A stretch of DNA of 62,625 nt, counting the filler. It is 6 parts of 6 records of this genome, joined end to end, with 100 filler letters (N's around TTAATTAATTAA, not from the genome) between each part and the next. Parts side by side here need not be neighbours in the genome. Positions count along the whole stretch, not along the records: positions 10,584 to 18,342 come from SRR31156797_2713; 5 more parts are not named here. One strand, 5' to 3'. Below the pieces are notes generated by a model. The model saw only the letters and a list, made by a program, of their open reading frames with translations. It searched no databases and had not been told where the DNA came from. This document shows, in pieces, positions 7,444 through 57,623 of this stretch. Both the position numbers and the translations under genes were made by a program. Numbering within the stretch: the first letter of the stretch is position 1; the number at the start of each line of letters is the position of its first letter.

Positions 7444-8082
7444 ATGAAAGAAGATTTTAAAAAACGAACAGTTATAACACCAGAAGGAAAACCATTAGAA
7501 ATTGATCCGGTGAAGGATTATTTCAGTGATGCAAAGCCTAAGGTGCATAAACCGGCACATCCAGTAATTGAAAAGTTTGCCAACTGGGCAAGAGCTAATT
7601 CACTATGGATACTTGGATTTGGTACCGGATGTGGAGCCATTGAAACACGTCCGTTAATGACTCCCCGTTTTGATGCTTACCGTTATGGTATTCAGTGGAG
7701 ACCAACACCAAGACAATCTTCTGTATTTATAATTTCGGGTTACTTATCGGTAAAAACCCTTAAAAGGGTAGTTAGGACTTATGAGCAAATGCAAAACCCA
7801 AAATTTGTAATTGCTTTAGGAAGTTGTACTATTAACGGAGGTATGTATTGGGATAGTTATAATACCATTAACCGACTCGATCATTATTTGCCAGTTGATG
7901 TATACATCGCAGGCTGTATGCCAAGACCAGAGGCTATTTTACACGGATTTGAACACCTGAAAAAGATTATCAAAGAAGGTCGTGGTGAGGGAGCTAATAA
8001 ATATGCTGAAGAATTTGAATGGTACAAAGCAAACCAGAAGAAAATAATTAAAGACTGGGATATGCCTGATTATAATTGGTAA
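7444..8082 (+). CDS. NuoB/MbxJ-like Fe-S subunit
   Basis: GTGCGAIE...PRFDAYRYG...TPRQ...YEQMQNPKFVIALGSC...PVDVYIAGCMPRPE. Confidence 0.9.
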   Translation: MKEDFKKRTVITPEGKPLEIDPVKDYFSDAKPKVHKPAHPVIEKFANWARANSLWILGFGTGCGAIETRPLMTPRFDAYRYGIQWRPTPRQSSVFIISGYLSVKTLKRVVRTYEQMQNPKFVIALGSCTINGGMYWDSYNTINRLDHYLPVDVYIAGCMPRPEAILHGFEHLKKIIKEGRGEGANKYAEEFEWYKANQKKIIKDWDMPDYNW

Positions 8083-8085
8083 GTT

Positions 8086-8135
8086 AGGTTGAGGTTGAGG
8101 TTGAGGCTGAGGCTAAGGCTAAGGATGAGGCTGAG
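8086..8135 (+). repeat. Hexamer tandem array (AGGTTG/AGGCTG/AGGCTA x8), left arm of four-helix-bundle cassette 1
   Basis: aggttg aggttg aggttg aggctg aggcta aggcta aggatg aggctg ag, starting 3 nt after the NuoB-like stop. Confidence 0.9.
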
Positions 8136-8170
8136 TAGTAGTAGGATATTGAATATAGAGATAATTGAAT

Positions 8171-8533
8171 ATGAGTAAGGATTTTACAGATATGAATGTA
8201 TGGCAATTAGGACTTGAGTTCGTAAAGTCTATTTATGAGCTTACCAAATCTTTCCCTTCTGAGGAGAAATTTGGGTTAGTTTCTGATATGCGTCGTGCAG
8301 CAACTTCAATTCCTAATAATATTGCTGAAGGTTATGGTCGTTTTGAAGCCAGAGATAAATCAAGGTTTTACAAAATAGCAAGAGGAAGCTGCTATGAATT
8401 GCATAGTCAATTGATTATTTCGAAGGAATTAGGATTTATAATTTCAGATGAGATTACTAATTCATTAATAAATATGACAAAGGGTATTAACCTGGAATTA
8501 AATAAACTAATAAAAGCTATAGAATGTAAATAA
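8171..8533 (+). CDS. Four helix bundle protein (23S rRNA IVP / Avd-like family)
   Basis: F.D..VWQ...IYELTKSFPSEEKFGLVSDMRRAATSIPNNIAEG.GR...F..IARGS..EL signature; ATG at 8171 preferred over TTG at 8165. Confidence 0.92.
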   Translation: MSKDFTDMNVWQLGLEFVKSIYELTKSFPSEEKFGLVSDMRRAATSIPNNIAEGYGRFEARDKSRFYKIARGSCYELHSQLIISKELGFIISDEITNSLINMTKGINLELNKLIKAIECK

Positions 8534-8565
8534 TAGAAGGTATAAGGAATAATGCAGAGGCCTTT

Positions 8566-8589
8566 TAGCCTCAGCCTTAGCCTCAGCCT
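8566..8589 (-). repeat. Hexamer array (TAGCCT/CAGCCT x4), inverted right arm of cassette 1
   Basis: Reverse complement is aggctg aggcta aggctg aggcta, the same units as 8086-8135. Confidence 0.9.
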
Positions 8590-8703
8590 TTTGATTATAG
8601 AGATCAATAACTTGATTAACTATACAAACGAAAAATTGAAAGTATAGGCTAATAACATCATTAAGCAATTTAACAATATAACAATTAGACCATAAAAATA
8701 GAT

Positions 8704-9234
8704 ATGCAGAACATATTAAACGACATAAAAGACAGATTCCAAACCACTGATCACATTCAGCAACGGGATGATCTTTCTTTCGTAACAGTTGATAAAGAAA
8801 TTGCCATTTCACTAATCACATACATGAGAGATTATTTGGGTATGGCACATTTGGTATTACTAACAGCTACTGACTGGATTGAGGAAGGTAAGTTTCAATT
8901 GACATATCTTTTAAACAATCCTGACAAGAAATTAGATATTGGTGTTCGTGTTTATATTGAACGCGAAAATGCAAGTATGTATTCGGCTCATCATTTATGG
9001 GAACAGGTAGCTACTTATCAAAGAGAGCTCAGAGAAATGTTTGGAATTGATTTTCCTGGCAGTCCTGGAATTGAAAAAGATTTTATACTCGAAGGTTGGG
9101 AGGGTACGCCTCCTTACCGAAGAGAATTCGATACAAAGCAATATTCAGAAGATACTTATTTCCCACGTCCGGGAAGAGGATCTAATGATCCGGCAGAATA
9201 TATGAAGAAAAAGCTGTACGACGATGAAGAATAG
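8704..9234 (+). CDS. NuoC/MbxK-like subunit
   Basis: ATDW...FQLTYLL...YQRELREMFGIDFPGSP...LEGWEGTPPYRREF. Confidence 0.9.
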   Translation: MQNILNDIKDRFQTTDHIQQRDDLSFVTVDKEIAISLITYMRDYLGMAHLVLLTATDWIEEGKFQLTYLLNNPDKKLDIGVRVYIERENASMYSAHHLWEQVATYQRELREMFGIDFPGSPGIEKDFILEGWEGTPPYRREFDTKQYSEDTYFPRPGRGSNDPAEYMKKKLYDDEE

Positions 9235-10414
9235 ACGATTTAAAATAAACGAGGACAGGTCATTATTCCCTGAGAAAAACGCTGAGGGAAAGATAGACGT
9301 TGACTTAAGTTCACACAAGTATTTGAAACTTTGGCAAGGACCTCAGCACCCCGGTATTACTGGGAATATGTCCCTTGAATTAACTGTTTTGGGAGATGAG
9401 GTTATGGAGTGTGAAACACATGTGGGTTATCTACATCGTGGTTTCGAAAAACTCATGGAACGTCGCAAATACATTCAGTGTTTTCCAATTGTATGCCGTA
9501 TTGCTGTGCCTGAACCGGACTTTAATGAATACTGTTTTGCTTCGGCAATGGAAGAGCTTGCAGGTATTGAAATTCCTGAAATGGCTCAATGGCTGCGAAA
9601 CTTAGTGTTGGAAATGTCGCGATTACAATCATACCTTATGTGGATTGGTGGTCAGTCGGGAGCATTCGGATCTGGTATTATTGGTCAATGGGCCAACTAT
9701 TGTCGTGATTTAGTACTTGACCGCTTTGAGGAGCTTACCGGTGGTCGTATTTATCACATGTATCAGTTACCTGGTGGAGTCCGTGGTTTGTTGCCTGACG
9801 GATTTGAGCAAAGAATGGAAGAAACACTTCAAACCATAGAGAAGTTTATGGCTGATATTGAAAAGGTAATGTTCAATAATGCCATTTTTAAGAAACGTTC
9901 TGTAGGAATGGGATATATTGATCCGGCATGGATTACTAAATTTGGTATAACAGGGCCAAACGCAAGGGCAGCGGGAGTTGCATTGGATGTGAGAAAAGAT
10001 TACCCTTATTTGAAATATAATGAACTGGATTTTGAACCAATAGTTGGTAAAGATTCAGATATTTATACAAGAGCAGATGTGCGTCGTCGTGACTTGCTTT
10101 TAAGTATTGATCTTATCAGACAAATTTTCGCGAAGATGCCTAAGAAGGGTGAGTTTAGAGCAGAAACACCCAACGTATTGCACTGGAAAGTGCCTGCAGG
10201 TGAGACTTATAAACGCTCGGAATGTACACGTGGAGAATATGGTTATTATATGGTTTCTGATGGTTCAGGATATCCACGTAGAGTAAATGTAAGAGGACCA
10301 AGTTATACGCATGCTATCGCCTTGCTAGAGAAAATGATTGTGAATACAAACATTGCAGATGTCGCAGGTTTAATGGTATCGCTACACACTTATCCGCCGG
10401 AAATTGAAAGATAA
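9224..10414 (+). CDS. NuoD/MbxL-like large subunit without NiFe ligands
   Basis: GPQHPG...GYLHRGFEKLME, ELTGGR, TGPNARAAGVALDVRKDYPY, RGEYG, RGPS; C-terminus SLHTYPPEIER. Confidence 0.9.
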   Translation: MKNRRFKINEDRSLFPEKNAEGKIDVDLSSHKYLKLWQGPQHPGITGNMSLELTVLGDEVMECETHVGYLHRGFEKLMERRKYIQCFPIVCRIAVPEPDFNEYCFASAMEELAGIEIPEMAQWLRNLVLEMSRLQSYLMWIGGQSGAFGSGIIGQWANYCRDLVLDRFEELTGGRIYHMYQLPGGVRGLLPDGFEQRMEETLQTIEKFMADIEKVMFNNAIFKKRSVGMGYIDPAWITKFGITGPNARAAGVALDVRKDYPYLKYNELDFEPIVGKDSDIYTRADVRRRDLLLSIDLIRQIFAKMPKKGEFRAETPNVLHWKVPAGETYKRSECTRGEYGYYMVSDGSGYPRRVNVRGPSYTHAIALLEKMIVNTNIADVAGLMVSLHTYPPEIER

Positions 10415-10418
10415 AATG

Positions 10419-10483
10419 GTTTCATGTTCCATGTTTCAGGTTTCAAGTTCTAGAACCTGAAACTTGAAACCTGAAACTTGAAA
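10419..10483. repeat. Empty heptamer-repeat hairpin (GTTTCAN x4 / NTGAAAC x4)
   Basis: gtttcat gttccat gtttcag gtttcaa gttc|ta|gaac ctgaaac ttgaaac ctgaaac ttgaaa; starts 4 nt after the stop codon; contig ends inside it. Confidence 0.9.
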
Positions 10484-10583
10484 NNNNNNNNNNNNNNNNN
10501 NNNNNNNNNNNNNNNNNNNNNNNNNNNTTAATTAATTAANNNNNNNNNNNNNNNNNNNNNNNNNNNNNNNNNNNNNNNNNNNN
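10484..10583. other. Artificial contig-joining spacer
   Basis: N-run + TTAATTAATTAA (stops in all frames) + N-run, 100 nt. Confidence 0.97.
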
Positions 10584-10584
10584 A

Positions 10585-11187
10585 AAAAAAGACAATACCG
10601 AAGAAAAAATCCTTAATGCAGCACAATCCGTTTTTATACGTAAAGGAATGGACGGTGCACGCATGCAGGAAATAGCGGATGAAGCAGGTATTAACAAAGC
10701 ACTTTTACACTATTATTTTCGCTCAAAACAAAAATTATTTGAAGCGATTTTCACCATGCTTTTCAAACAAATTTTCCCGAATGTAAAAGCCATCATGCTT
10801 TCTGAAATCCCTTTGGAGAAGAAAATTGAAACTTTCGTTGAGAAATACATCGATTTACTCCTGAAAAATCCCTTCCTCCCGGCTTTTGTTTTAAAAGAAA
10901 TAAACAGAGATTCAAGCTTTTTTGCCACACTTTTTAAAAGCAATAAAATCGATATTGAACCCGTATTTGAAATGCTTCGGATAGAAATGGAAACCGGAAA
11001 GGTCAGAAAAATGGATCCACGCGAGATTATTATGAATATGATTGCACTTTGTATTTTCCCATTTGCTGCTAAGCCTCTTTTAAAAATCATGCTTTTTAAT
11101 GATGATAAAGAAGCATACCATGCTTTTTTAAGTGAAAGAAAAAAGACAGTTACACAATTTATTCTCAATTCAATTTTATTAAAATGA
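10585..11187 (+). CDS. TetR/AcrR family regulator (5' end cut by contig edge)
   Basis: Frame is open to the contig start: TEEKILNAAQSVFIRKGMDGARMQEIADEAGINKALLHYYFRSK. Confidence 0.92.
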   Translation, partial: KKDNTEEKILNAAQSVFIRKGMDGARMQEIADEAGINKALLHYYFRSKQKLFEAIFTMLFKQIFPNVKAIMLSEIPLEKKIETFVEKYIDLLLKNPFLPAFVLKEINRDSSFFATLFKSNKIDIEPVFEMLRIEMETGKVRKMDPREIIMNMIALCIFPFAAKPLLKIMLFNDDKEAYHAFLSERKKTVTQFILNSILLK

Positions 11188-11317
11188 AACGAACATGAAC
11201 TTATTCAATCATAACTACACAAATAAAATGATTTAAAAAGTTTATGCGAGAGCGGAGCGCTTACATCCGTTCTCAAATTTTAAAGTAAATAGTTAACAAC
11301 TTGAAAATTTAAAACGG

Positions 11318-12586
11318 ATGAAAAAACTGCTCATACTCCTGATCTTACCTGTACAAATAGCTTTCGGCCAAGCGGAAGTACAATTGGATAGCTGCTATGT
11401 TTGGGCCAGGCACCATTATCCCAACCTTAGAAACTCCGAATTATGGCAAGAAATAACCTCCTTGCAGCAGGCCAACCACGAAACAAACTACCTTCCTCAA
11501 CTGGCATTAAAAGGCCAGGCAACCTACCAAAGTGATGTTACAGAAGTACCAACCATTTTGCCCAATGTTAGTATTCCCACTTTGTCGAAAGACCAATACA
11601 AAGCCTACGCCGAATTGCAACAAACCATTTGGGATGGAGGAGTTACAAAAGCCAGCAAAGAGCTGGAAAATGCAATTTTAGAAAGCAACCTGAGCCAATT
11701 GGAAGTCGAGCTTTATCAGCTTAACGAAAAGGTTGCACAAGCTTTTTTCACGGGGTTGGTTGTCGATCAGCAAAGGGAAGTTATTAAAGCCCAACTGAAA
11801 ACATTGGATGTACAGTTAAAACAAGTGAATTCGGCAGTAATAAACGGGGCAATGGAGAGATCGTCGCTGTTAGTTCTAAAGGCCGAAAGATTAAACTTCG
11901 AACAAAATCTTATTGAACTGAAAACGGCAAAAAGGGCAAGCATTCAGGTTTTAAGCATTTTTACAGGAAAAGCCATTTCCGAGCAATCGGAACTTTCGTA
12001 TAACCGGATTAATACCAACTACAATTCCAACTTTCTTCGTCCTGAGTTACAACTGTACGCTCTTCAAAAAAATCAACTCAATACACAAATAAACCTATTG
12101 GATAAAACCCGTAATCCAAAACTTTATGGATTTGGGCAGCTGGGATATGGAAGGCCTGGACTAAACATGTTGCTCGATGAATTTAAAGGCTACTATTTAT
12201 TGGGCATTGGCGTGTCGTGGAAAGCTTTTGACTGGAAAAACACTGCGCGCCAAAAGGAAATACTTCAGGTACAACAAAAAATGCTTCAAAACCAGGAAAA
12301 CACTTTTATTCAAAATCTTGAATTATTATTGGTTCAACAAAAAGAACAAATCAGCAAACTGGAAAAGCTTTTGCAGAACGATGATAAAATCGTTACCCTA
12401 CGTACAGACATCACCAAAGCTACAGCCTCAAAGCTCGAAAACAAAACTATTACAACCTCTGATTACGTTCGCGAATTACAGGCCGAAACAGTTGCCAGAA
12501 TTAATCTCGAACTGCATAAAATACAACTCAATGAAGCACTGGAAAAGTATAACCTGATAAAAGGAAAAACGAGTGTGTCAAGGTAG
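11318..12586 (+). CDS. TolC family outer membrane protein
   Basis: Signal peptide, YLPQLALKGQATYQSDV, QTIWDGG, LGYGRPGLNM; sits in an efflux operon. Confidence 0.85.
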   Translation: MKKLLILLILPVQIAFGQAEVQLDSCYVWARHHYPNLRNSELWQEITSLQQANHETNYLPQLALKGQATYQSDVTEVPTILPNVSIPTLSKDQYKAYAELQQTIWDGGVTKASKELENAILESNLSQLEVELYQLNEKVAQAFFTGLVVDQQREVIKAQLKTLDVQLKQVNSAVINGAMERSSLLVLKAERLNFEQNLIELKTAKRASIQVLSIFTGKAISEQSELSYNRINTNYNSNFLRPELQLYALQKNQLNTQINLLDKTRNPKLYGFGQLGYGRPGLNMLLDEFKGYYLLGIGVSWKAFDWKNTARQKEILQVQQKMLQNQENTFIQNLELLLVQQKEQISKLEKLLQNDDKIVTLRTDITKATASKLENKTITTSDYVRELQAETVARINLELHKIQLNEALEKYNLIKGKTSVSR

Positions 12587-12635
12587 CTTTTTTAATAGAA
12601 TAATAACAACTTGTAAACCGGTAAAAAACAATATC

Positions 12636-13538
12636 ATGAAATACAATCGACTAATTTTCGCATTCGACAATGCACTTCTTCTAACGTTTGCCATATTTCT
12701 CTTTGCCTGCAAGAACAATAACGATACTTCAGATGCCTACGGTAATTTTGAAGCTGAATCAGTAATTGTATCTGCAGAAAATGCTGGCAAGATTCTGAAG
12801 CTGAACATTGAAAAAGGCCAGCAAATTCAAAAAGATTATGTTGCAGCTGTAGTTGATACGGTTCAGCTTCATTTACAACGATTACAAATTGATGCCCAAA
12901 AATCTTCGGTTTTGGCAAAAAAACAATCCATACAAGCTCAGGTCGATGTTTTAGAAGAACAGAAAAAAACACTGGCGATTAACGAAGTCCGAATAAAAAA
13001 AATGCAAAAGGATGGAGCAGCCACTCAAAAACAATTGGACGATATTCAGGGGCAAATCAATGTTATCGACAAACAAATTGCAAATACCAAAACCCAGTTT
13101 GTGTTGATTGCCAAAGAATACGAAGTACTGGATGCCCAGGCCGGTAGTATTACAGACCAACTAAATCGATGCTCAGTTAAGTCACCAATATCGGGTACAA
13201 TTTTAGAGACCTATGCAGAACAAGGTGAATTAACGGCCGCTGGCAAACCGCTTTTCAAAGTGGCAGACCTAAGTCAAATGGAACTTAAGGTTTATGTCAG
13301 CGGGTCGCAATTACCACAATTACAAATCGGGCAAAAGGTTGATATTCACATTGATAAAAACGAAAGCGAAAATCAGACATTACAAGGTAGGATCACATGG
13401 ATCTCAACGGAAGCAGAATTCACGCCGAAGATTATTCAAACCAAAGAAGAACGTGTAAAACTGGTTTATGCCGTAAAAGTGGCAGTGGCTAATGATGGCA
13501 AGCTAAAGATTGGTATGCCGGGAGAAATCAGTTGGTAG
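12636..13538 (+). CDS. HlyD family periplasmic adaptor (YbhG-like)
   Basis: Lipobox LFAC, YGNFEA, coiled coil, SPISGTIL, EAEFTPKIIQTKEERVKLVYAVK. Confidence 0.9.
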   Translation: MKYNRLIFAFDNALLLTFAIFLFACKNNNDTSDAYGNFEAESVIVSAENAGKILKLNIEKGQQIQKDYVAAVVDTVQLHLQRLQIDAQKSSVLAKKQSIQAQVDVLEEQKKTLAINEVRIKKMQKDGAATQKQLDDIQGQINVIDKQIANTKTQFVLIAKEYEVLDAQAGSITDQLNRCSVKSPISGTILETYAEQGELTAAGKPLFKVADLSQMELKVYVSGSQLPQLQIGQKVDIHIDKNESENQTLQGRITWISTEAEFTPKIIQTKEERVKLVYAVKVAVANDGKLKIGMPGEISW

Positions 13539-13552
13539 TGATCACTTTAATC

Positions 13553-14455
13553 ATGATAGAGATAAATAAAATATCAAAGTCGTACAATGAAACGGTAGCA
13601 TTGGCCGACATCAGTCTGAAGATAAACAAAGGGGAGTTGTTTGGGCTGATCGGACCCGACGGGGCAGGTAAAACTACTCTGATGCGAATCCTGATGACAC
13701 TGTTACTTCCCGATTCCGGAGAGGCCAAAATGGATGAGATGGATGTGGTGACGCATTTCAAAACAATCCGAAACATTGTGGGCTATATGCCCGGACGCTT
13801 TTCGCTCTACCAGGATCTTACGGTTGAAGAAAACCTCAACTTTTTTGCTACGGTGTTTGGAACCACAGTTGAAGAAAATTACGACTTAATTCGCGATATC
13901 TATTACCAGATTGAACCGTTTAAAATGCGCCGGGCAGGAAAACTCTCGGGCGGGATGAAACAAAAACTGGCTTTATCGTGCGCATTAATCCACAAACCAA
14001 AGGTGTTGGTATTGGACGAACCCACAACCGGGGTTGATGCGGTCTCGAGAAAAGAATTTTGGGAGATGCTAAAAGACCTGCAAAAAAAGGAAATTACTAT
14101 TATGGTATCTACACCATACATGGATGAAGCAGATTTATGCGACCGGGTGGCACTGATACAAAACGGTGAAATTCTGGATATTGACACTCCAAAGGGAATT
14201 ACCCAAAAATTCACCAAAAAGATCTTTCAGGTACATGCCCGAAATATGTACAAACTAATTAAAGACTTACGTGCATACAAAAGGACAGAATCTGTTTTTG
14301 CCTTTGGACAGTTTGCCCATTTTACCGGGGTAAACAACCAGGTAAATACCAACGAACTCAATCAGTACCTTCAGGTGCTGGGACACGAAGATGTATGGGT
14401 TGAAGAAATCGCGGCAGGAATTGAGGATGTGTTTATGCATAAGATGAAGGACTAG
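13553..14455 (+). CDS. ABC transporter ATP-binding protein
   Basis: Walker A GPDGAGKTT, signature LSGGMKQK, Walker B LDEPTTGVD. Confidence 0.95.
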   Translation: MIEINKISKSYNETVALADISLKINKGELFGLIGPDGAGKTTLMRILMTLLLPDSGEAKMDEMDVVTHFKTIRNIVGYMPGRFSLYQDLTVEENLNFFATVFGTTVEENYDLIRDIYYQIEPFKMRRAGKLSGGMKQKLALSCALIHKPKVLVLDEPTTGVDAVSRKEFWEMLKDLQKKEITIMVSTPYMDEADLCDRVALIQNGEILDIDTPKGITQKFTKKIFQVHARNMYKLIKDLRAYKRTESVFAFGQFAHFTGVNNQVNTNELNQYLQVLGHEDVWVEEIAAGIEDVFMHKMKD

Positions 14456-14522
14456 CTAAAAGATACCAGCCACAAGCTTCAAGCTTATTAAAACTTGGGA
14501 TTTGCTGCTTACAACTTGTAGC
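14454..14522. repeat. Degenerate empty heptamer-repeat hairpin
   Basis: agctaaa agatacc agccaca agcttca agctt ... acttggg atttgct gcttaca acttgta gc; overlaps the TAG stop. Confidence 0.7.
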
Positions 14523-14535
14523 CAAAATAAACAAA

Positions 14536-15255
14536 ATGGAAAACATAATTACAACCAATAAGCTCACCAAAAAATTCGGCAGCTTCAAAGCAAACGACAA
14601 CCTGACTTTTGAAGTTAAAAAGGGAGAAATATTTGGTTTTCTGGGTGCAAACGGTGCCGGAAAAACTACAGCCATACGTATTTTATGCGGACTCTCTGCT
14701 CCAACCTCGGGAGAAGTAAAGGTGGCCGGTTTTGATATTTACCGTGAAACCGAAAAGATTAAAAAGAACATCGGTTACATGAGTCAGAAGTTTTCGTTGT
14801 ACGAAGATTTAACCGTTTCGGAAAACATTCAACTTTATGCTGGTATTTATGGTATTCCAACTAAAAAACGAAAAGCAAAGGAAGCTGAACTGCTAAAAAA
14901 ACTGGAACTTGAAACCGTTAAAAATAAACTGATTGGCGACCTGCCTCTTGGCTGGAAACAAAAGCTAGCCTTTTCGGTGGCTATTTTTCACGAACCTAAA
15001 ATTGTTTTTCTCGACGAACCAACAGGAGGAGTCGATCCGGTTACCCGACGTAAATTCTGGGATTTGATTTACGAAGCAGCCAACAATGGAATAACCGTTT
15101 TTGTAACCACCCATTACATGGACGAAGCCGAATATTGTAACCGCGTTTCGATTATGGATGCAGGAAAAATTGAAGCACTTGATACCCCTGCCAAATTAAA
15201 AGAAAAGTACAACGCCAAAAATATGGACGAGGTGTTTTTGAAGATTGCGAGATAG
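14536..15255 (+). CDS. ABC transporter ATP-binding protein
   Basis: GANGAGKTT, LPLGWKQK, LDEPTGGVD, THYMDEAE. Confidence 0.95.
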   Translation: MENIITTNKLTKKFGSFKANDNLTFEVKKGEIFGFLGANGAGKTTAIRILCGLSAPTSGEVKVAGFDIYRETEKIKKNIGYMSQKFSLYEDLTVSENIQLYAGIYGIPTKKRKAKEAELLKKLELETVKNKLIGDLPLGWKQKLAFSVAIFHEPKIVFLDEPTGGVDPVTRRKFWDLIYEAANNGITVFVTTHYMDEAEYCNRVSIMDAGKIEALDTPAKLKEKYNAKNMDEVFLKIAR

Positions 15256-15320
15256 GCAAGCCACAAGCTTCACGCCACAAGCTACAAGAAAGAACAACTT
15301 GAAGCTTGCAGCTTGAAGCT
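15255..15320. repeat. Empty heptamer-repeat hairpin
   Basis: ggcaagc cacaagc ttcacgc cacaagc tacaag, loop aaagaacaa, cttgaa gcttgca gcttgaa gct; starts at the TAG stop. Confidence 0.85.
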
Positions 15321-15333
15321 AAAAAAACAAATA

Positions 15334-16440
15334 ATGAAACAACTAATATCATTTATAAAAAAGGAATTCTTCCACATTTTTCGCGACCCGAGAACGGTGT
15401 TGATTTTGTTTGGAATTCCAATCATTCAGCTGTTGGTTTTTGGTACGGTTATCAAAAGCGAAATCAAAGACCTGCACATTGCTGTTTACGACCAGTCGAA
15501 AGATGAAACCACCCAGCAAGTAATCAACAAGTTATTGTCATCGGGTTATTTTATTCTCGATAAAAACCTGAACAGCCTTGATGAAGTAGAAGCTATTTTC
15601 AGAAAAGGAAAAGTAAAGGAGGTGGTTGTTTTTGAAAATAACTTTGGTAAAAACCTAAGGCGCGAAGGCACTGCAAATCTGCAGCTTATTGCCGATGCAT
15701 CAGATCCGAATACCGCCAAACTGGCCATTTCGTACACTTCGGCCATCGTTAACGATTACATTCGAAAGGAATTTCCTGAGCTGAAAATGCCCATGCAAAT
15801 TACACCTGAGGTGCGCATGTTTTTTAACGAAGAGATGAAAAGTGCCTATATGTTTGTACCGGGAGTAATGGCACTTATTTTAATGCTAATTTCTGCCATG
15901 ATGACCTCTATTTCCATCACCCGGGAAAAAGAACTGGGCACCATGGAAATTCTGCTTGTTTCGCCACTAAAACCAGCACAAATCATTATCGGGAAAGTAA
16001 TCCCCTACCTCTTTCTTTCCATTGCCAATGCATTTATAATTGTTCTAATGGGCAGGTTTGTTTTTGGCGTCCCGATCACCGGGAGCTTTATTTTGCTCAT
16101 GTTCGAAACCATACTTTTTATTTTGATGGCCTTATGCCTGGGCATACTTATTTCAACAGTAGCAAAAAACCAAATGGTTGCCATGTTCATTTCCATGATC
16201 GGCCTTATGTTACCCACCATTTTGTTATCGGGCTTTATTTTCCCCATCGAAAATATGCCTGTGGCCTTACAAATTCTAAGCAATATTATGCCTGCCAAAT
16301 ACTTTATTATTGTGGTACGCAGCATTATGCTAAAAGGTGTTGGACTACTTTTTATCTGGAAAGAAACCCTTACAATGTTGGGAATGACCTTGTTTTTTAT
16401 TGGAGTTAGTGTGCGGAAGTTTAAGGTGAGGTTGGAGTGA
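15334..16440 (+). CDS. ABC-2 type permease (YbhS-like)
   Basis: KEFFHIFRDPRT, SITREKELGTME.LLVSPL, LLSGFIFPIENMP. Confidence 0.92.
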   Translation: MKQLISFIKKEFFHIFRDPRTVLILFGIPIIQLLVFGTVIKSEIKDLHIAVYDQSKDETTQQVINKLLSSGYFILDKNLNSLDEVEAIFRKGKVKEVVVFENNFGKNLRREGTANLQLIADASDPNTAKLAISYTSAIVNDYIRKEFPELKMPMQITPEVRMFFNEEMKSAYMFVPGVMALILMLISAMMTSISITREKELGTMEILLVSPLKPAQIIIGKVIPYLFLSIANAFIIVLMGRFVFGVPITGSFILLMFETILFILMALCLGILISTVAKNQMVAMFISMIGLMLPTILLSGFIFPIENMPVALQILSNIMPAKYFIIVVRSIMLKGVGLLFIWKETLTMLGMTLFFIGVSVRKFKVRLE

Positions 16441-16443
16441 AAG

Positions 16444-16488
16444 AGCTAGAAGACACAAGCTACAAGCTTCAAGTCTCAAGTCTCAAGT
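16444..16488 (+). repeat. Heptamer tandem array, left arm of four-helix-bundle cassette 2
   Basis: agctaga agacaca agctaca agcttca agtctca agtctca agt, 3 nt after the TGA stop. Confidence 0.9.
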
Positions 16489-16572
16489 ACAGTTAGTATA
16501 TGTTGAACTTTAAGTGAAAATAATTTTAGAAGTGATACTAAAAAAATCAAATAAGACTCAAAAACAAACGCT

Positions 16573-16926
16573 ATGAAAGACTTTAAAAACTTAAAAGTAT
16601 GGCAAAAGGGAATTCAATTGGTTCTTGACATCTACAAATCATCCAAAGAATTCCCAAAAGAAGAGTTGTATGGACTTACTAGCCAGATGAGACGTTCTGC
16701 AGTTTCCATTCCATCTAATATTGCTGAAGGTTCGGGTAGAAACTCAGATAACGAATTTAATCGTTTTTTGGATATTTCACTTGGCTCTTCATTCGAATTG
16801 GAAACACAAATCATAATCGCTCATGAGTTAGAATTATTGTCTGACAATGATTTCAATTGCCTTAACAACAAGGTGAAAGAAGTACAAAAAATGATTACTG
16901 GTCTGCAAAAAAGTATACGAAAATAG
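16573..16926 (+). CDS. Four helix bundle protein (23S rRNA IVP / Avd-like family)
   Basis: FKNLKVWQK...FPKEELYGLTSQMRRSAVSIPSNIAEGSGR...FLDISLGSSFELETQ. Confidence 0.95.
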   Translation: MKDFKNLKVWQKGIQLVLDIYKSSKEFPKEELYGLTSQMRRSAVSIPSNIAEGSGRNSDNEFNRFLDISLGSSFELETQIIIAHELELLSDNDFNCLNNKVKEVQKMITGLQKSIRK

Positions 16927-16967
16927 ATCGCTTAAACATTGTGCAATAAATATCTTTAAAGCAATTC

Positions 16968-16992
16968 ACTTGAAGCTTGTAGCTTGAAGCTT
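16968..16992 (-). repeat. Heptamer array, inverted right arm of cassette 2
   Basis: acttgaa gcttgta gcttgaa gctt; 16968-16986 is the exact reverse complement of 16456-16474. Confidence 0.9.
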
Positions 16993-17009
16993 ACCAGTAA
17001 CTCTAATAA

Positions 17010-18128
17010 ATGAAAACAATTCTCTACATCCTACAAAAAGAATTCCGGCAAATATTCCGGAACCGAACCATGTTACCCATGATTTTTGGGGTACCCATAT
17101 TACAAATGCTATTGCTGGTATTTGCAGCTACCTACGACATGAAACGTATTGATTTAATGGTGGTCGATAATGATATGTCGGCAACAACACGCGAGCTGAT
17201 TGCTAAATTCGATGGCATTCCTTTTTTTCATGTAAAAAAGCAAGCTTTGTCGGCGCAAATGGCCGAGCAGAACTTATTAAATGACAAAGCCGATGCCATT
17301 TTGGTATTGCCCAATAACTTCGAGCGCGACCTTATTCGCGATGATAAAAACACGGTACAACTGCTGGTAAACGCCATTGAGAGCAACTCTGCCCAGCTAA
17401 TTTATGGTTACGCTGCCAATGTAATTGCCGACCACAACAAAAATATTATTGCCGAATGGAAAGCCATTCCGGAATTTACCCCACCGGTACAAATAGCTAT
17501 TACCGAAAACTACTGGTACAATCCCGAGCTCGACTACAAATGGTTTATGGCTCCCGGTATTTTAGCTGTTTTGGTTACCCTGATAGGCATGTTTTTATCG
17601 GGAATGAACCTGGTGCGCGAAAAGGAGATTGGCACCATTGAACAGATAAATGTTACACCGGTAAAAAAATATCAGTTTATAATTGGCAAATTGGTGCCCT
17701 TTTGGGTAATCGGCCTGTTCGACCTGGCATTTGGACTGGCCATTGCCTGGATCGTTTTCGATTTGCCTATTGTTGGCAGCCTCTTCACTTTGTTTTTTAT
17801 GGCAGGCATATACCTCATTGGAGTGCTGGGGCTGGGCATGTTTATTTCAACGGTTAGCGAAACCCAGCAACAGGTTATGTTCGTCAGCTTTTTCTTTTTA
17901 ATGATTTTTATTTTGATGGGCGGTATTTTTACGCCAGTTGAAAGTATGCCCGACTGGGCACAAACCCTCGACCGCCTAAATCCTATTTATTATTTTATGC
18001 GAATTATGCGTATGGTAGTGCTTAAAGGCTCCGGCTTTTTTGATTTGCTGGAAGAACTGGTTTCACTATTAATTTTAGGCACCACATTTTTAAGTTTGGC
18101 CATTTGGAGGTACCGGAAGACGGCTTGA
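17010..18128 (+). CDS. ABC-2 type permease (YbhR-like)
   Basis: KEFRQIFRN, WYNPELDY, VREKEIGTIEQINVTPV, GGIFTPVESMP. Confidence 0.92.
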   Translation: MKTILYILQKEFRQIFRNRTMLPMIFGVPILQMLLLVFAATYDMKRIDLMVVDNDMSATTRELIAKFDGIPFFHVKKQALSAQMAEQNLLNDKADAILVLPNNFERDLIRDDKNTVQLLVNAIESNSAQLIYGYAANVIADHNKNIIAEWKAIPEFTPPVQIAITENYWYNPELDYKWFMAPGILAVLVTLIGMFLSGMNLVREKEIGTIEQINVTPVKKYQFIIGKLVPFWVIGLFDLAFGLAIAWIVFDLPIVGSLFTLFFMAGIYLIGVLGLGMFISTVSETQQQVMFVSFFFLMIFILMGGIFTPVESMPDWAQTLDRLNPIYYFMRIMRMVVLKGSGFFDLLEELVSLLILGTTFLSLAIWRYRKTA

Positions 18129-18162
18129 TGCTTTCGTAGTCTTCAGTCGCAGTTTTATTGCT

Positions 18163-18290
18163 GTCATCCCGAACGAAGAGAGGGATCTGTTACAGAAAAG
18201 CTGCAAGCTACAAGCTGCAAGTCACAAGAACAAATTGAAGACAAAGATTCAGTTTTATGCTGGTTGTCTTTCGACTAGAGTTCGTATGAC
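18163..18290. repeat. REP-like element (GTCAT...ATGAC ends) enclosing a heptamer array
   Basis: gtcatcccgaac (18163-18174) ... gttcgtatgac (18280-18290); inside, agctgca agctaca agctgca agtcaca ag (18199-18228). Confidence 0.55.
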
Positions 18291-18342
18291 GACTATTTTA
18301 CCCGGTTCCGCATCATTCAGAAACGGTTCTCCGTCATTCAGA

Positions 18343-18442
18343 NNNNNNNNNNNNNNNNNNNNNNNNNNNNNNNNNNNNNNNNNNNNTTAATTAATTAANN
18401 NNNNNNNNNNNNNNNNNNNNNNNNNNNNNNNNNNNNNNNNNN
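18343..18442. other. Artificial contig-joining spacer
   Basis: N-run + TTAATTAATTAA + N-run. Confidence 0.97.
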
Positions 18443-18796
18443 TTGCTAATTGCACGAAGAGATGCTAAAATAAGCGATGGCTCAGTAGTTACTATTAATT
18501 ATGTTACAGGAACCAGCAACAGAATCCAGACTATGTCTCTGCCAAAGAAGGCTGTCGGCAATCATCAGAAAGCTCTTATAATTGATGACTTCATGAAAGG
18601 CGGCGGCAGTGCACGAGGCCTGATGGATATGATGCGTGAATTCTCTATTACTGTGGTAGGTGTCGGCGTTGTAATAGCTACTCAATATCCAGAAGCTAAA
18701 AGAGTACGTAATTACAAGTCGTTAATGGTTCTAAACAATGTTGATGAAGTAAATAGAAAGGTTGATGTCAGTCCATCTGATTGGATAAAATCTTAA
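18443..18796 (+). CDS. purR: Pur operon repressor, C-terminal part (5' truncated)
   Basis: RRD.KI.DGS.V.INYV.G....IQTMSL and LIIDDFMKGGG PRPP-binding motif; upstream of glmU-prs. Confidence 0.88.
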   Translation: MLIARRDAKISDGSVVTINYVTGTSNRIQTMSLPKKAVGNHQKALIIDDFMKGGGSARGLMDMMREFSITVVGVGVVIATQYPEAKRVRNYKSLMVLNNVDEVNRKVDVSPSDWIKS

Positions 18797-18813
18797 GGGG
18801 AAAAATTAGCAAT

Positions 18814-20163
18814 ATGACAATTAAAGCAGTAATTTTAGCGGCTGGTAAAGGAACCAGAATGAAATCTTCTCTACCAAAAGTGCTCCACAAAGCAGTTGGC
18901 AAAGAAATGATTAAATGGGCAATGGATGCTGTTAAGGGAGTTGATGACAAGCCTGTACTGGTTGTGGGATATGGGAAAGAACAGGTTATTGATGCTATTG
19001 GGGATGATGCGTTCTATGCAGTACAGGAAGAACAAAACGGCACAGGTCACGCTGTTATGATGGCAAAGGAACATATCTCCGACTGTGACTATGTAGTTAT
19101 TACCTGCGGTGATATGATTCTATTAAGAAGTGAAAGTATTGAAGATATTGTTAATTATACAATAAAAAATGATTTAGATGGTGCAGTCTTAACTGCATTT
19201 GTAGATACCCCATTTGGCTTAGGAAGAATTCTAAAAGATGAAAATGATAATATCAAGTCAATAGTTGAAGAAAAAGACGCAAGTGATGATGAGCGTAAAA
19301 TTAATGAAATAAATACTGGTGTTTACTGCTATAAATCATCTATGCTGCTTGAATCTCTTGATAAGCTGGAGTGCAATAATTCTCAGAATGAATATTACCT
19401 AACTGATGTTGTGAAGATTATTAGCAACGGCGGCGGTAAAATCCGCAGCAAAAGCTGCGACCCAAGCGAAGGCTTAGGAATAAATGATAAATCACAGCTA
19501 GCAATTGCTGCAAAGGAGATAAGAAGCAGAATAAACTTAAAACATATGAAAAACGGGGTTACAATTATTGACCCGGAAAATACATATATTGATGATACTG
19601 TAGTTATTGGCAATGATACTACTATTTATCCAGGTGCAGTTATTGAAGGATATACTAAAATAGGTGAAGGATGCGTTTTGAAAGGTGCTTCATTGATTTC
19701 CAATGCTGCAATAGGCAATGATGTAACCATCAAGTCTTCTACTATTGAAAAAGCGATAGTAGATGATAGTACACTTGTTGGTCCAAATGCATATTTAAGA
19801 CCAAATTCAGTTATAGGTAAGAATTGCAAAATCGGTGATTTTGTAGAGATAAAAAATTCTAACATTGGCGATGATACTAAAATTTCACATCTTACATATG
19901 TAGGAGATGCTGATATTGGTAAGAACGTTAATCTGGGGTGTGGTGTAGTTCTTGTAAACTATGATGGTAATAACAAACATAGAACAGTTGTAGAAGATAA
20001 TGCATTTATCGGATGCAATACAAATTTAGTCTCTCCCGTGAGAATAGGAGAGGGAGCGTATACGGCCGCTGGTTCAACTATAACAGATGATGTACCAGCA
20101 AATACCTTGGCAATTGCCAGAAGCAGGCAAGTAGTAAAAAACAATTGGAAGAAGCCTGACTAA
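18814..20163 (+). CDS. glmU: Bifunctional UDP-GlcNAc pyrophosphorylase / GlcN-1-P acetyltransferase
   Basis: ILAAGKGTRMKS.LPKVLH, EYYLTD, hexapeptide repeats, HLTYVGD, NYDG. Confidence 0.97.
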   Translation: MTIKAVILAAGKGTRMKSSLPKVLHKAVGKEMIKWAMDAVKGVDDKPVLVVGYGKEQVIDAIGDDAFYAVQEEQNGTGHAVMMAKEHISDCDYVVITCGDMILLRSESIEDIVNYTIKNDLDGAVLTAFVDTPFGLGRILKDENDNIKSIVEEKDASDDERKINEINTGVYCYKSSMLLESLDKLECNNSQNEYYLTDVVKIISNGGGKIRSKSCDPSEGLGINDKSQLAIAAKEIRSRINLKHMKNGVTIIDPENTYIDDTVVIGNDTTIYPGAVIEGYTKIGEGCVLKGASLISNAAIGNDVTIKSSTIEKAIVDDSTLVGPNAYLRPNSVIGKNCKIGDFVEIKNSNIGDDTKISHLTYVGDADIGKNVNLGCGVVLVNYDGNNKHRTVVEDNAFIGCNTNLVSPVRIGEGAYTAAGSTITDDVPANTLAIARSRQVVKNNWKKPD

Positions 20164-20185
20164 GAGAATAACTAGGAGTATTTTT

Positions 20186-21202
20186 ATGAGTATGAATGGC
20201 GAGATAAAGCTATTTTGTGTCGGTTCTAACCCGAAGCTGACAGAAGAAATAGCTAAACTACTGGAACTTCCTTTAGGAATGAACAATGTAGGACGATTTA
20301 GTGATGGCGAGACCAGCGTACAAATCGAGGAAACAGTACGGGGATGCGATGTATTCCTCATACAGTCTACATGTGAACCGGTAAATGACCATTTAATGGA
20401 ACTTTTAGTTATGATTGATGCCACAAAGCGGGCAAGTGCTAGAAGAATTACCGCAGTAATACCATATTTCGGTTATGCTCGTCAGGACAGAAAATCCAAA
20501 GCTCGTGATCCTATTACTGCTAAACTAGTAGCAAATTTGATAACAGCTGCAGGTGCGGATAGGATACTTACAATGGATTTACACGCTCCACAGATACAGG
20601 GATTCTTTGATATTCCTACAGATAATCTTCAGGGGCTTCCAATATTAATAGCACATTACCAAAAGAGAATGTTTGCTGGCGATGATTTGGTAATAGTGTC
20701 TCCCGACTTAGGTTCAGTAAACAGAGCAAGGATGTTTGCTGGAGCGGTCAATGCACCTCTTGCAATAATTGAAAAAAGACGTCCAAAGGCAAATAAATCA
20801 CAGGTAATGAATGTTATCGGTGATGTAAATGGAAAAAGAGCGTTATTAGTTGATGATATGATTGACACTGCTGGTACAATAGTAAAAGCAGCAGAATCAT
20901 TAATTGAACGTGGTGCTACAGAAGTATATGCATGCTGTACACACAGCGTATTGTCAGGCGAAGCAATAGAGAGAATCAAAAACTCAAGCATTAAAGAATT
21001 GGTAGTTACAAATACTATACCATTGGCAAAATGCAAAAGAATTGATAAAATAAGAGTATTATCTGTGGCTCCTATGTTTGCAGAAGCAATAGAAAGAGTG
21101 TATGAGGATTTACCTGTCTCTTCACTATTTACTCATGCTCCTACAAATATAAGACCAATAGGCGTACAACAGTCAATAGAAAATTTAAATATTAGCAAAT
21201 AA
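20186..21202 (+). CDS. prs: Ribose-phosphate pyrophosphokinase
   Basis: FSDGE, PYFGYARQDRK, DLHAPQIQGFF, VDDMIDTAGT. Confidence 0.97.
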   Translation: MSMNGEIKLFCVGSNPKLTEEIAKLLELPLGMNNVGRFSDGETSVQIEETVRGCDVFLIQSTCEPVNDHLMELLVMIDATKRASARRITAVIPYFGYARQDRKSKARDPITAKLVANLITAAGADRILTMDLHAPQIQGFFDIPTDNLQGLPILIAHYQKRMFAGDDLVIVSPDLGSVNRARMFAGAVNAPLAIIEKRRPKANKSQVMNVIGDVNGKRALLVDDMIDTAGTIVKAAESLIERGATEVYACCTHSVLSGEAIERIKNSSIKELVVTNTIPLAKCKRIDKIRVLSVAPMFAEAIERVYEDLPVSSLFTHAPTNIRPIGVQQSIENLNISK

Positions 21203-24750: not shown

Positions 24751-24850
24751 NNNNNNNNNNNNNNNNNNNNNNNNNNNNNNNNNNNNNNNNNNNNTTAATT
24801 AATTAANNNNNNNNNNNNNNNNNNNNNNNNNNNNNNNNNNNNNNNNNNNN
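24751..24850. other. Artificial contig-joining spacer
   Basis: N-run + TTAATTAATTAA + N-run. Confidence 0.97.
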
Positions 24851-39719: not shown

Positions 39720-39819
39720 NNNNNNNNNNNNNNNNNNNNNNNNNNNNNNNNNNNNNNNNNNNNTTAATTAATTAANNNNNNNNNNNNNNNNNNNNNNNNN
39801 NNNNNNNNNNNNNNNNNNN
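39720..39819. other. Artificial contig-joining spacer
   Basis: N-run + TTAATTAATTAA + N-run. Confidence 0.97.
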
Positions 39820-57523: not shown

Positions 57524-57623
57524 NNNNNNNNNNNNNNNNNNNNNNNNNNNNNNNNNNNNNNNNNNNNTTAATTAATTAANNNNNNNNNNNNNNNNNNNNN
57601 NNNNNNNNNNNNNNNNNNNNNNN
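57524..57623. other. Artificial contig-joining spacer
   Basis: N-run + TTAATTAATTAA + N-run. Confidence 0.97.

Follow-up and report, generated by a model that had tools for sequence, protein, structure and literature searches.

Introduction

Proteins of the PF05635 family are among the commonest uncharacterised small proteins of cyanobacteria and Bacteroidota. Here we describe a member of this family, a four-helix-bundle (4HB) gene, which lies with its flanking repeats at positions 16444-16992 of a stretch of bacterial DNA of 62,625 nucleotides (nt), filler included, called the window throughout. The gene separates two permease genes of an efflux-type operon and is enclosed by inverted arrays of a heptamer, which are predicted to pair into a stem. 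The insert is probably one member of a group of small, selfish gene cassettes and a non-ribosomal counterpart of the intervening sequences (IVSs) of 23S rRNA that bear an open reading frame (ORF). The PF05635 family, the rRNA IVSs, and the heptamer repeats of bacteria are already described.

ORF-bearing 23S rRNA IVSs have been found in Leptospira, Coxiella and other bacteria. The Coxiella IVS comprises terminal inverted repeats that form a 28-bp stem cut by RNase III, enclosing a PF05635 ORF, and carries two to three tandem heptamers and one degenerate unit beside the ORF (PMC4990558). The same source reports that rRNA IVSs are sporadically distributed, that horizontal transfer has been inferred for them, and that the ORF of the Coxiella IVS has been argued to be decaying (PMC4990558). 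Non-intron rRNA insertions of Candidate Phyla Radiation (CPR) bacteria carry 23S_rRNA_IVP and GIY-YIG ORFs as cargo and are located mostly at the tops or bases of stem-loops (10.1101/2024.02.27.582315). In diversity-generating retroelements (DGRs), the Avd pentamer holds an RNA stem-loop with all five protomers, and base pairing in the DGR RNA joins sequences located upstream of its cargo with others located downstream (10.1101/2023.10.23.563531). Heptamer microsatellites of cyanobacteria, Bacteroidota, Beggiatoaceae, and xanthomonads have been reported as short tandemly repeated repetitive sequences (STRR), long simple sequence repeats, TAACTGA, and GGGAATC; they are intergenic, often lie directly beside start or stop codons, and their origin and function are unexplained (PMC4679880, PMC4692102). 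Xanthomonas has 70-75 convergent inverted heptamer pairs, for which no cargo is reported (PMC4692102). The relevant passages of both papers draw no link between heptamer repeats and PF05635 genes.

The anatomy of the window insert matches that of the rRNA IVSs, with a PF05635 ('S23p') ORF in the loop of a long terminal-repeat stem. The original prediction had proposed the same stem-plus-cargo design, and the heptamers of the Coxiella IVS extend the likeness (PMC4990558). Unlike the rRNA IVSs, the insert lies between protein-coding cistrons, two ABC-2 permease genes, rather than in an rRNA helix, and its arms are microsatellite arrays whose unit varies by lineage; in contrast to the decay argued for the Coxiella ORF, its protein is clearly under selection. 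The protein shares the four-helix-bundle pentamer fold family with Avd, whereas the cassette has no reverse transcriptase, template repeat, or variable repeat and its protein scores below the Avd cut-offs. In contrast to the heptamer microsatellites described so far, the arrays are inverted pairs around a gene, with a unit specific to the cassette lineage. Related cassettes carry nuclease genes (PF13366, GIY-YIG), which recalls the CPR non-intron insertions and free-standing homing endonuclease genes; unlike the products of the latter, the 4HB protein is not known to act as a nuclease. Full-text searches, with subscription journals and database family notes outside their scope, retrieved no paper that treats repeat arms as a feature of PF05635 genes in general and no description of the intercistronic habit, unit-level duplication, or alternative nuclease cargo of such cassettes.

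The cassette between two permease genes

The window is made up of six draft contigs joined by linkers. One of them (10584-18342) carries the efflux-type operon, in which family profiles applied to nine ORFs of 11318-21202 recognized OEP, HlyD, two ATP-binding cassette (ABC) ATPases, and two ABC-2 permeases. The 4HB gene and its arms occupy the space between the permeases. It had been claimed that a heptamer array follows the first permease stop codon, that its inverse precedes the next permease start, that the arms share a perfect 19-bp inverted repeat, and that they enclose only the 4HB ORF. The coordinates were confirmed, the repeat is present, and the 4HB gene is the sole ORF with a family match between the arms (Table 1). 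A 60-aa antisense ORF nested in the 4HB gene (16632-16814) is without any support. Tandem Repeats Finder returned the left arm as two rows of period 7 (16444-16473 and 16469-16488) and the right array as 16969-16992. The inner left spacer varies in length among relatives and measures about 45 nt in locus L009 (loci are cited by L number).

The perfect repeat extends to 25 nt at 80% identity; by our own arithmetic, about 1e-6 perfect 19-bp inverted repeats would be expected by chance in 681 nt. When 16430-17010 was folded, as had been proposed, the arms were paired in the minimum-energy RNA structure (z -3.49), and 0 of 100 shuffles were as stable. A second 4HB gene lies between NuoB-like and NuoC-like genes (start of the latter at 8704) of a Nuo-like operon in the window; its arms also pair in the fold (z -4.22). 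In both window copies, inverted short-period arrays directly flank a PF05635 ORF between cistrons, which is the arrangement proposed for the class.

Repetitive extragenic palindromic (REP) sequences and bacterial interspersed mosaic elements (BIMEs), enterobacterial repetitive intergenic consensus (ERIC) sequences, and Correia elements lie between cistrons as palindromic inserts and fold within the transcript, where RNase III cuts some of them. They carry no gene, and their arms are conserved sequences rather than lineage-specific microsatellites. The insert differs from REP-like elements and from miniature inverted-repeat transposable elements: its ORF is under selection, its arm sequence differs by lineage, and no duplication was seen at its borders.

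A chance repeat or an assembly artefact might be suspected in a window of six chained draft contigs, one of which breaks inside a repeat hairpin. This explanation is scarcely credible, given that the fold z-scores are strongly negative and that assemblies made independently, complete chromosomes and finished plasmids among them, show the same architecture.

Table 1. Positions of the cassettes, neighbouring genes, hairpins, and related nuclease genes
Feature	Position	Strand	Remarks
Left arm	16444..16488	+	~6 heptamer units AGCTNCA / AGTCTCA; begins 3 nt past permease-1 stop
Left half of perfect 19-bp inverted repeat	16456..16474	+	partner 16968-16986
Inner left spacer	16489..16572	+	leader of 4HB gene
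4HB gene, 117 aa	16573..16926	+	PF05635 E 5e-43
Inner right spacer	16927..16967	+	
Right arm	16968..16992	+	~3.4 heptamer units CTTGAAG, inverse of left arm; 17 nt to permease-2 ATG
ABC-2 permease 1, upstream cistron	15334..16440	+	PF12698 E 1.7e-48; from most likely start; TGA stop 16438-16440
ABC-2 permease 2, downstream cistron	17010..18128	+	PF12698 E 2.7e-48; ATG at 17010
Left arm, second cassette	8086..8135	+	hexamer array AGGYTG; begins 3 nt past stop of NuoB-like gene (7444-8082)
Second 4HB gene, 120 aa	8171..8533	+	tblastn, 46% identical to first; TIGR02436 116 bits
Right arm, second cassette	8565..8590	+	TTAGCC / TCAGCC, inverse of 8086-8135
Cargo-less hairpin	15257..15320	+	unit CAAGCYN as in 16444-16992 arms; between ABC ATPase 2 (stop 15255) and permease 1
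Cargo-less heptamer hairpin	10419..10483	+	GTTTCAN; begins 4 nt after NuoD-like stop at 10414
Single heptamer array after permease 2	18198..18228	+	AAGCTGC / AAGCCAC
Linkers	10484-10583, 18343-18442, 24751-24850, 39720-39819, 57524-57623		N44-TTAATTAATTAA-N44
PF13366 genes of related loci	L016:9561-9941, L022:8229-8600, L025:8784-9143, L078:4775-5161, L079:9442-9828		arms CACAGAG- or ATCTGCG-type

The 4HB protein

The window 4HB protein matches the family models PF05635 (146 bits, cut-off 33.8), TIGR02436 (135.5 bits, cut-off 24), and NF008911 (151.1 bits, cut-off 137). By sequence it is related to a four-helix-bundle pentamer of solved structure (2gsc_A, E 7.8e-23 over residues 5-116; 2rld_A, E 9.6e-5). 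No match to a homing endonuclease accompanies these hits; the scan with family profiles turned up nothing in the protein beyond PF05635 and a weak match to bAvd. The structural relationship of the family to Avd, put forward in the original prediction, holds as a link, in the form of weak matches below threshold: bAvd at E 4.7e-7 and 30.7 bits (cut-off 40), and the Avd equivalog at 24.2 bits (cut-off 80). These matches would also be what an orphan Avd gene, the remnant of a DGR, leaves behind. That origin is very improbable, since both scores fall short of their cut-offs, no reverse transcriptase was found among the nine scanned ORFs, which cover the operon and its downstream neighbours, and the gene recurs at the same permease junction in relatives, again without a reverse transcriptase.

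The ratio of nonsynonymous to synonymous substitution rates (dN/dS) is 0.03-0.13 for the 4HB gene against its orthologues and also between paralogous copies in one operon; for the pair of copies in L030, dN is 0.017 and dS 0.259. Codon comparison thus shows the protein to be under strong purifying selection.

Inverted flanks across the PF05635 family

Flanks of 4HB genes and of control ORFs were compared by an inverted-repeat score with a threshold of at least 12, using a relaxed scorer alongside Tandem Repeats Finder. The threshold was reached by 20 of 32 4HB genes and by 17 of 1230 control ORFs (Fisher p 8e-26), counted over loci that are not phylogenetically independent and in which many cassettes are orthologous; among small control ORFs it was reached by 1 of 164. 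Other members of the family have inverted short-period flanks, as the cassette proposal had anticipated. The high-scoring set spans Draconibacterium relatives and cyanobacterial plasmid loci, and period 7 dominates. Duplex folding of 120-nt flanks (RNA.duplexfold) was tried as an alternative metric and dropped, given the wide overlap between controls (median -29 kcal/mol) and 4HB genes (-45).

A tblastn search of plasmids matched 32 records, mostly cyanobacterial, of which 20 loci were examined. Ten of the 20 reach the threshold, Azospirillum, Riemerella, and many cyanobacteria among them, and by eye a short-period array is present on at least one side in all 20. The unit varies by locus and includes GTAGGGA, GGGAACA, AAGGGA, GGCAGAA, CAGAGGA (Azospirillum), and AAGGTTN (Riemerella). 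Exceptions are L093 and L094, which lost the left arm beside an ISL3 transposase, L095, in which the gene is broken, and L097-L100, in which the right arm is short. The plasmid cassettes are placed between ribonucleotide reductase beta and alpha genes, between parA and parB, between hlyD and an ABC gene, and in a tra region after a gene with a TraM-recognition domain. On three cyanobacterial plasmids (L002:1501-1860, L091:595-963, L090:592-948), the 4HB gene lies among cas genes, twice between cas6 and cas4 and once between cas10 and cmr3.

Occupancy of the operon junctions in relatives

A scan with permease 1 yielded 80 loci. Identity to the window protein is 77-86% in Draconibacterium, followed by other Prolixibacteraceae and Bacteroidales, and about 58-60% in Flavobacteriia, so the window is regarded as Draconibacterium-like. 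Whether the gene is fixed at its junction across relatives had been raised as a check on the cassette proposal. It is not fixed, and the junction between permease 1 and permease 2 occurs in three forms. In many distant relatives it is tight (2-34 nt). In others it measures 55-370 nt and holds repeat hairpins of various units or other inserts. In the window, L009, L012, L021, and L022 it is filled by a 4HB gene with inverted heptamer arms. The 4HB gene is also found between ATPase 2 and permease 1 in 11 loci, between ATPase 1 and ATPase 2 in five, and between HlyD and ATPase 1 in four.

A host tree of the permease was built for 30 taxa, from 31 loci with at least 61.5% permease-1 identity, one of which was dropped. 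On this tree, occupancy requires at least four changes at the permease 1-permease 2 junction, where five taxa have the 4HB gene, and at least eight at the ATPase 2-permease 1 junction. In L007, among the closest relatives, the junction retains the two arms together with the final ~13 codons of the 4HB gene. This is an in-place deletion of a filled cassette that has left a hairpin, as read from the remnant sequence.

Long junctions without known cargo in distant relatives were considered and rejected as cassettes; what they contain is ordinary additional genes (DUF2147, OsmC, ferritin-like, glyoxalase) or ORFs with no assignment. In L028 (11117-11485), the permease 1-permease 2 junction contains about seven copies of a ~52-nt tandem repeat with GTGATAAGT-type short repeats, ends in their inverse, and has no ORF.

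Arms and cargo as one unit

In L030, two cassettes occupy different junctions and share 90% identity along 508-520 nt, a stretch that opens with the upstream stop codon and closes with the right arm. Identity runs across both arms and the ORF, so the duplicated unit consists of the arms plus the ORF. One older pair is present in each of L009 and L013, with identities of 79% and 77%. In the 4HB tree, the five copies from the permease 1-permease 2 junction form one clade (Shimodaira-Hasegawa-like approximate likelihood ratio test 85), and a 125-aa subfamily mixes junctions. Arm units correspond to cargo clades: the 125-aa subfamily (L009, L010, L012, L013, L030) has CAGTCGC-type arms, the core of the ATPase 2-permease 1 clade (L013, L014, L018, L035) has GAGTNNT-type arms, and the permease 1-permease 2 clade has CAAGCTN, shifting to CGAGTNA.

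L012 is joined to L021 in the 4HB tree (support 95/92), and in the permease tree L021 belongs with the window and L009 (99). This host grouping was rejected for the 4HB tree in an approximately unbiased (AU) test (p-AU 0.013) whose group was chosen after the trees had been seen. Since L012 and L021 share a cargo clade against the host tree and also the CGAG arm unit, the pattern points to lineages having exchanged entire cassettes at a single site. Comparison across loci shows that a cassette behaves as a single unit, its arms and ORF being inherited, duplicated, and exchanged together. The suggestion of a transposase-less mobile cassette is backed by the L030 duplication, the conflict between cassette and host trees, and the presence of closely related cargo in unrelated contexts.

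The 4HB gene is not the only cargo. PF13366 genes (PD-(D/E)XK, 'GxxExxY') occupy the same operon junctions between inverted repeat arms in five cases, all co-oriented with the operon (Table 1). Elsewhere in a related locus, a GIY-YIG gene (L039:5113-5427 and flanks) lies between plain inverted repeats of the tgtcattcc... type. Elements of this type look like a second cassette family, with conserved rather than microsatellite ends. The window contains half of a repeat of the same type near 18163-18190, and a junction of L008 is occupied by a cargo-less pair (11105-11346). The 'tgtcatcccgaacgaagagagggatctg' hairpin after permease 2 (18150-18195) resembles the terminal repeats in L008 and those around the L039 GIY-YIG gene.

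A count over 1.45 Mb of loci gave 169 arrays with a period of 6-8. Arrays within 150 nt of a cargo gene number 22 of 169, against an expectation of 0.7% (p 6e-21). Fourteen have an inverted partner within 750 nt, and nine of these 14 enclose a 4HB gene. An inverted pair at L039:463-1004 was discarded as a false positive inside a repetitive coding region.

The hairpins could instead be host intergenic elements, REP-like or serving as sites of mRNA stabilization or processing, which were born by slippage and in whose loops the 4HB gene is a secondary guest. Cargo-less hairpins are indeed common, at 15257-15320 and 10419-10483 in the window and at many junctions in relatives; adjacent junctions within an operon have the same unit even if cargo is present at just one of them; and inverted heptamer pairs in Xanthomonas have no reported cargo (PMC4692102). 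The number of arrays that stand apart from any cargo, given below, also fits this origin. On the other hand, the L030 duplication takes in both arms exactly, arm units follow cargo clades across species and junctions, the L007 hairpin arose from a filled cassette by deletion, and L012 and L021 agree in cargo clade and arm unit against the host tree. We consider a host origin of the hairpins possible, if unlikely. Under the preferred reading of the insert as a selfish cassette, the cargo-less hairpins may be its non-coding derivatives.

Stem conservation, arm polarity, and expression

The outer stem of 21 pairs is 90.5% paired across five orthologous cassettes, and seven of its pairs changed on both sides. 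None of 500 shuffles reaches 90.5%, and slid controls give 25-41%. The comparison shows that arm pairing is kept by compensatory change while the unit differs by lineage.

The two arms differ in composition. G exceeds C in the upstream arm of 26 of 35 cassettes, and C exceeds G in two. Relative to the ORF, the upstream arms are rich in G and purines and the downstream arms in C and T. Many units in cyanobacteria and Azospirillum resemble Shine-Dalgarno sequences (GGAG, GAGG, AGGAG), and those of Bacteroidota do not. Arm polarity and the Shine-Dalgarno-like units hint at a link to translation.

A rival reading is a domesticated function, in which the 4HB protein and stem would serve the operon, e.g., by setting how stable the flanking cistrons are relative to each other or how they are translated, and would owe their retention to selection on the host. 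The G-rich upstream arm is consistent with this, as are the strong purifying selection, which holds even between two paralogues in one operon, and the orientation of 4HB genes found inside the operon, 25 of 25 of which follow the operon strand; the single clade at the permease 1-permease 2 junction suggests long vertical retention. Occupancy is nevertheless patchy at two junctions among the 30 relatives, the same cassette type recurs in unrelated operons (Nuo, cas, ribonucleotide reductase, par, tra), and nuclease genes occupy the same slots. Domestication is therefore regarded as improbable, and the selfish cassette remains the preferred reading.

TAnnTTTG is the -7 promoter motif of Bacteroidota. 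It was found within 120 nt upstream in 0 of 27 Bacteroidota cassettes, the window included, where shuffles predict 0.06 per flank. A scan of 15200-18342 for sigma-70 promoters and terminators, which does not model Bacteroidota promoters, gave nothing on the plus strand inside the cassette. The absence of the -7 motif would fit expression from the operon transcript. In the mechanism proposed here, the cassette would lack a promoter of its own and would be transcribed within the operon mRNA. The arms would pair into a 19-25-bp stem and separate the insert from the flanking cistrons, as RNase III does for 23S rRNA inserts, and an Avd-like pentamer of the 4HB protein would bind the arm stem. Binding of its own stem is a reasonable guess by analogy, since the related Avd grips an RNA stem-loop with all five protomers. 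Copying to new junctions would require a trans-acting factor or recombination through the arms. The cassette would work like an ORF-bearing rRNA IVS placed in an mRNA.

Besides the shared ancestry of many of the counted loci and the choice of the AU-test group, several observations weigh against the selfish cassette and its mechanism. Twelve of the 32 4HB genes score below 12, and two (L007:7890 and L021:7893) are among the few without visible arms. In L002 (1280-1970), about 15 AAAAGCT copies upstream and about 10 AAAAGCC copies downstream stand in direct orientation, and an inverse unit lies farther upstream. Most arrays stand alone, 147 of the 169 not being beside a cargo gene. No target-site duplication was seen by eye at the borders of the window copy or of the L030 copies, and no candidate enzyme for cassette transfer was seen. 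In three of the first six plasmid loci with neighbours checked (L001, L003, L004), the 4HB gene is antisense to both neighbours, so operon-driven expression is not universal. Among arm mismatches in 40 cassettes, G·U outnumbers A·C by 44 to 30 (p 0.13; 18 to 14 by cassette). As this difference is not significant, a DNA-level role for the stem is equally open, and a stem in the sense RNA is not favoured by the mismatch pattern over a DNA-level stem or concerted evolution of the inverted repeats. Co-transcription, RNase III cutting, and protein binding of the cassette are steps that we infer.

Other features of the window

The cargo-less hairpin ahead of permease 1 folds at -24.2 kcal/mol (z -4.94), and its junction, between ATPase 2 and permease 1, is the one filled by a 4HB gene in 11 related loci. 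The start of permease 1 is most likely ATG 15334 rather than the listed TTG 15313, because most relatives align from residue 8 and the TTG falls within the right arm of this hairpin. The hairpin after the NuoD-like gene folds at -27.8 kcal/mol (z -6.08), and the first contig of the window ends within it, so such repeats probably fragment the assembly. The single array after permease 2 has no inverted partner before the contig end at 18342, and its fold is not significant (z -0.40). A 21-nt tandem repeat of 1.9 copies (18303-18342) forms the extreme end of the operon contig. Rfam returned no match at the gathering score over the whole window and no rRNA; at E<=1 over 8000-18342 it gave four matches only, all at chance level. 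ARAGORN found no tRNA gene.

Implications

A wider reading, which we regard as doubtful, is that the 4HB pentamer binds its own periodic stem and, with a trans factor, copies the cassette to intercistronic spacers and rRNA helices. The cargo would be interchangeable among 4HB, PD-(D/E)XK, and GIY-YIG genes, and many of the heptamer microsatellites of cyanobacteria, Bacteroidota, Beggiatoaceae, and xanthomonads would be arms or relics of such cassettes. The trans factor in this doubtful scheme might be a hairpin-specific DNA enzyme or, as the analogy with Avd would suggest, a reverse transcriptase of the host.

A large survey of CRISPR systems lists '23S rRNA IVP' as associated with adaptation modules (PMC10910872). 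Cassettes between cas genes may explain this listing; 4HB genes that lie within operons, CRISPR-cas operons among them, can make 'guilt by association' a misleading guide. Going by the literature that PMC4990558 cites, ORF-bearing rRNA IVSs have stood unexplained since the early 1990s. A stem-plus-gene unit that lies between ordinary cistrons and moves as a unit would turn this rRNA oddity into a general, testable cassette system, and it would offer a concrete origin for at least part of the heptamer microsatellites of bacteria.

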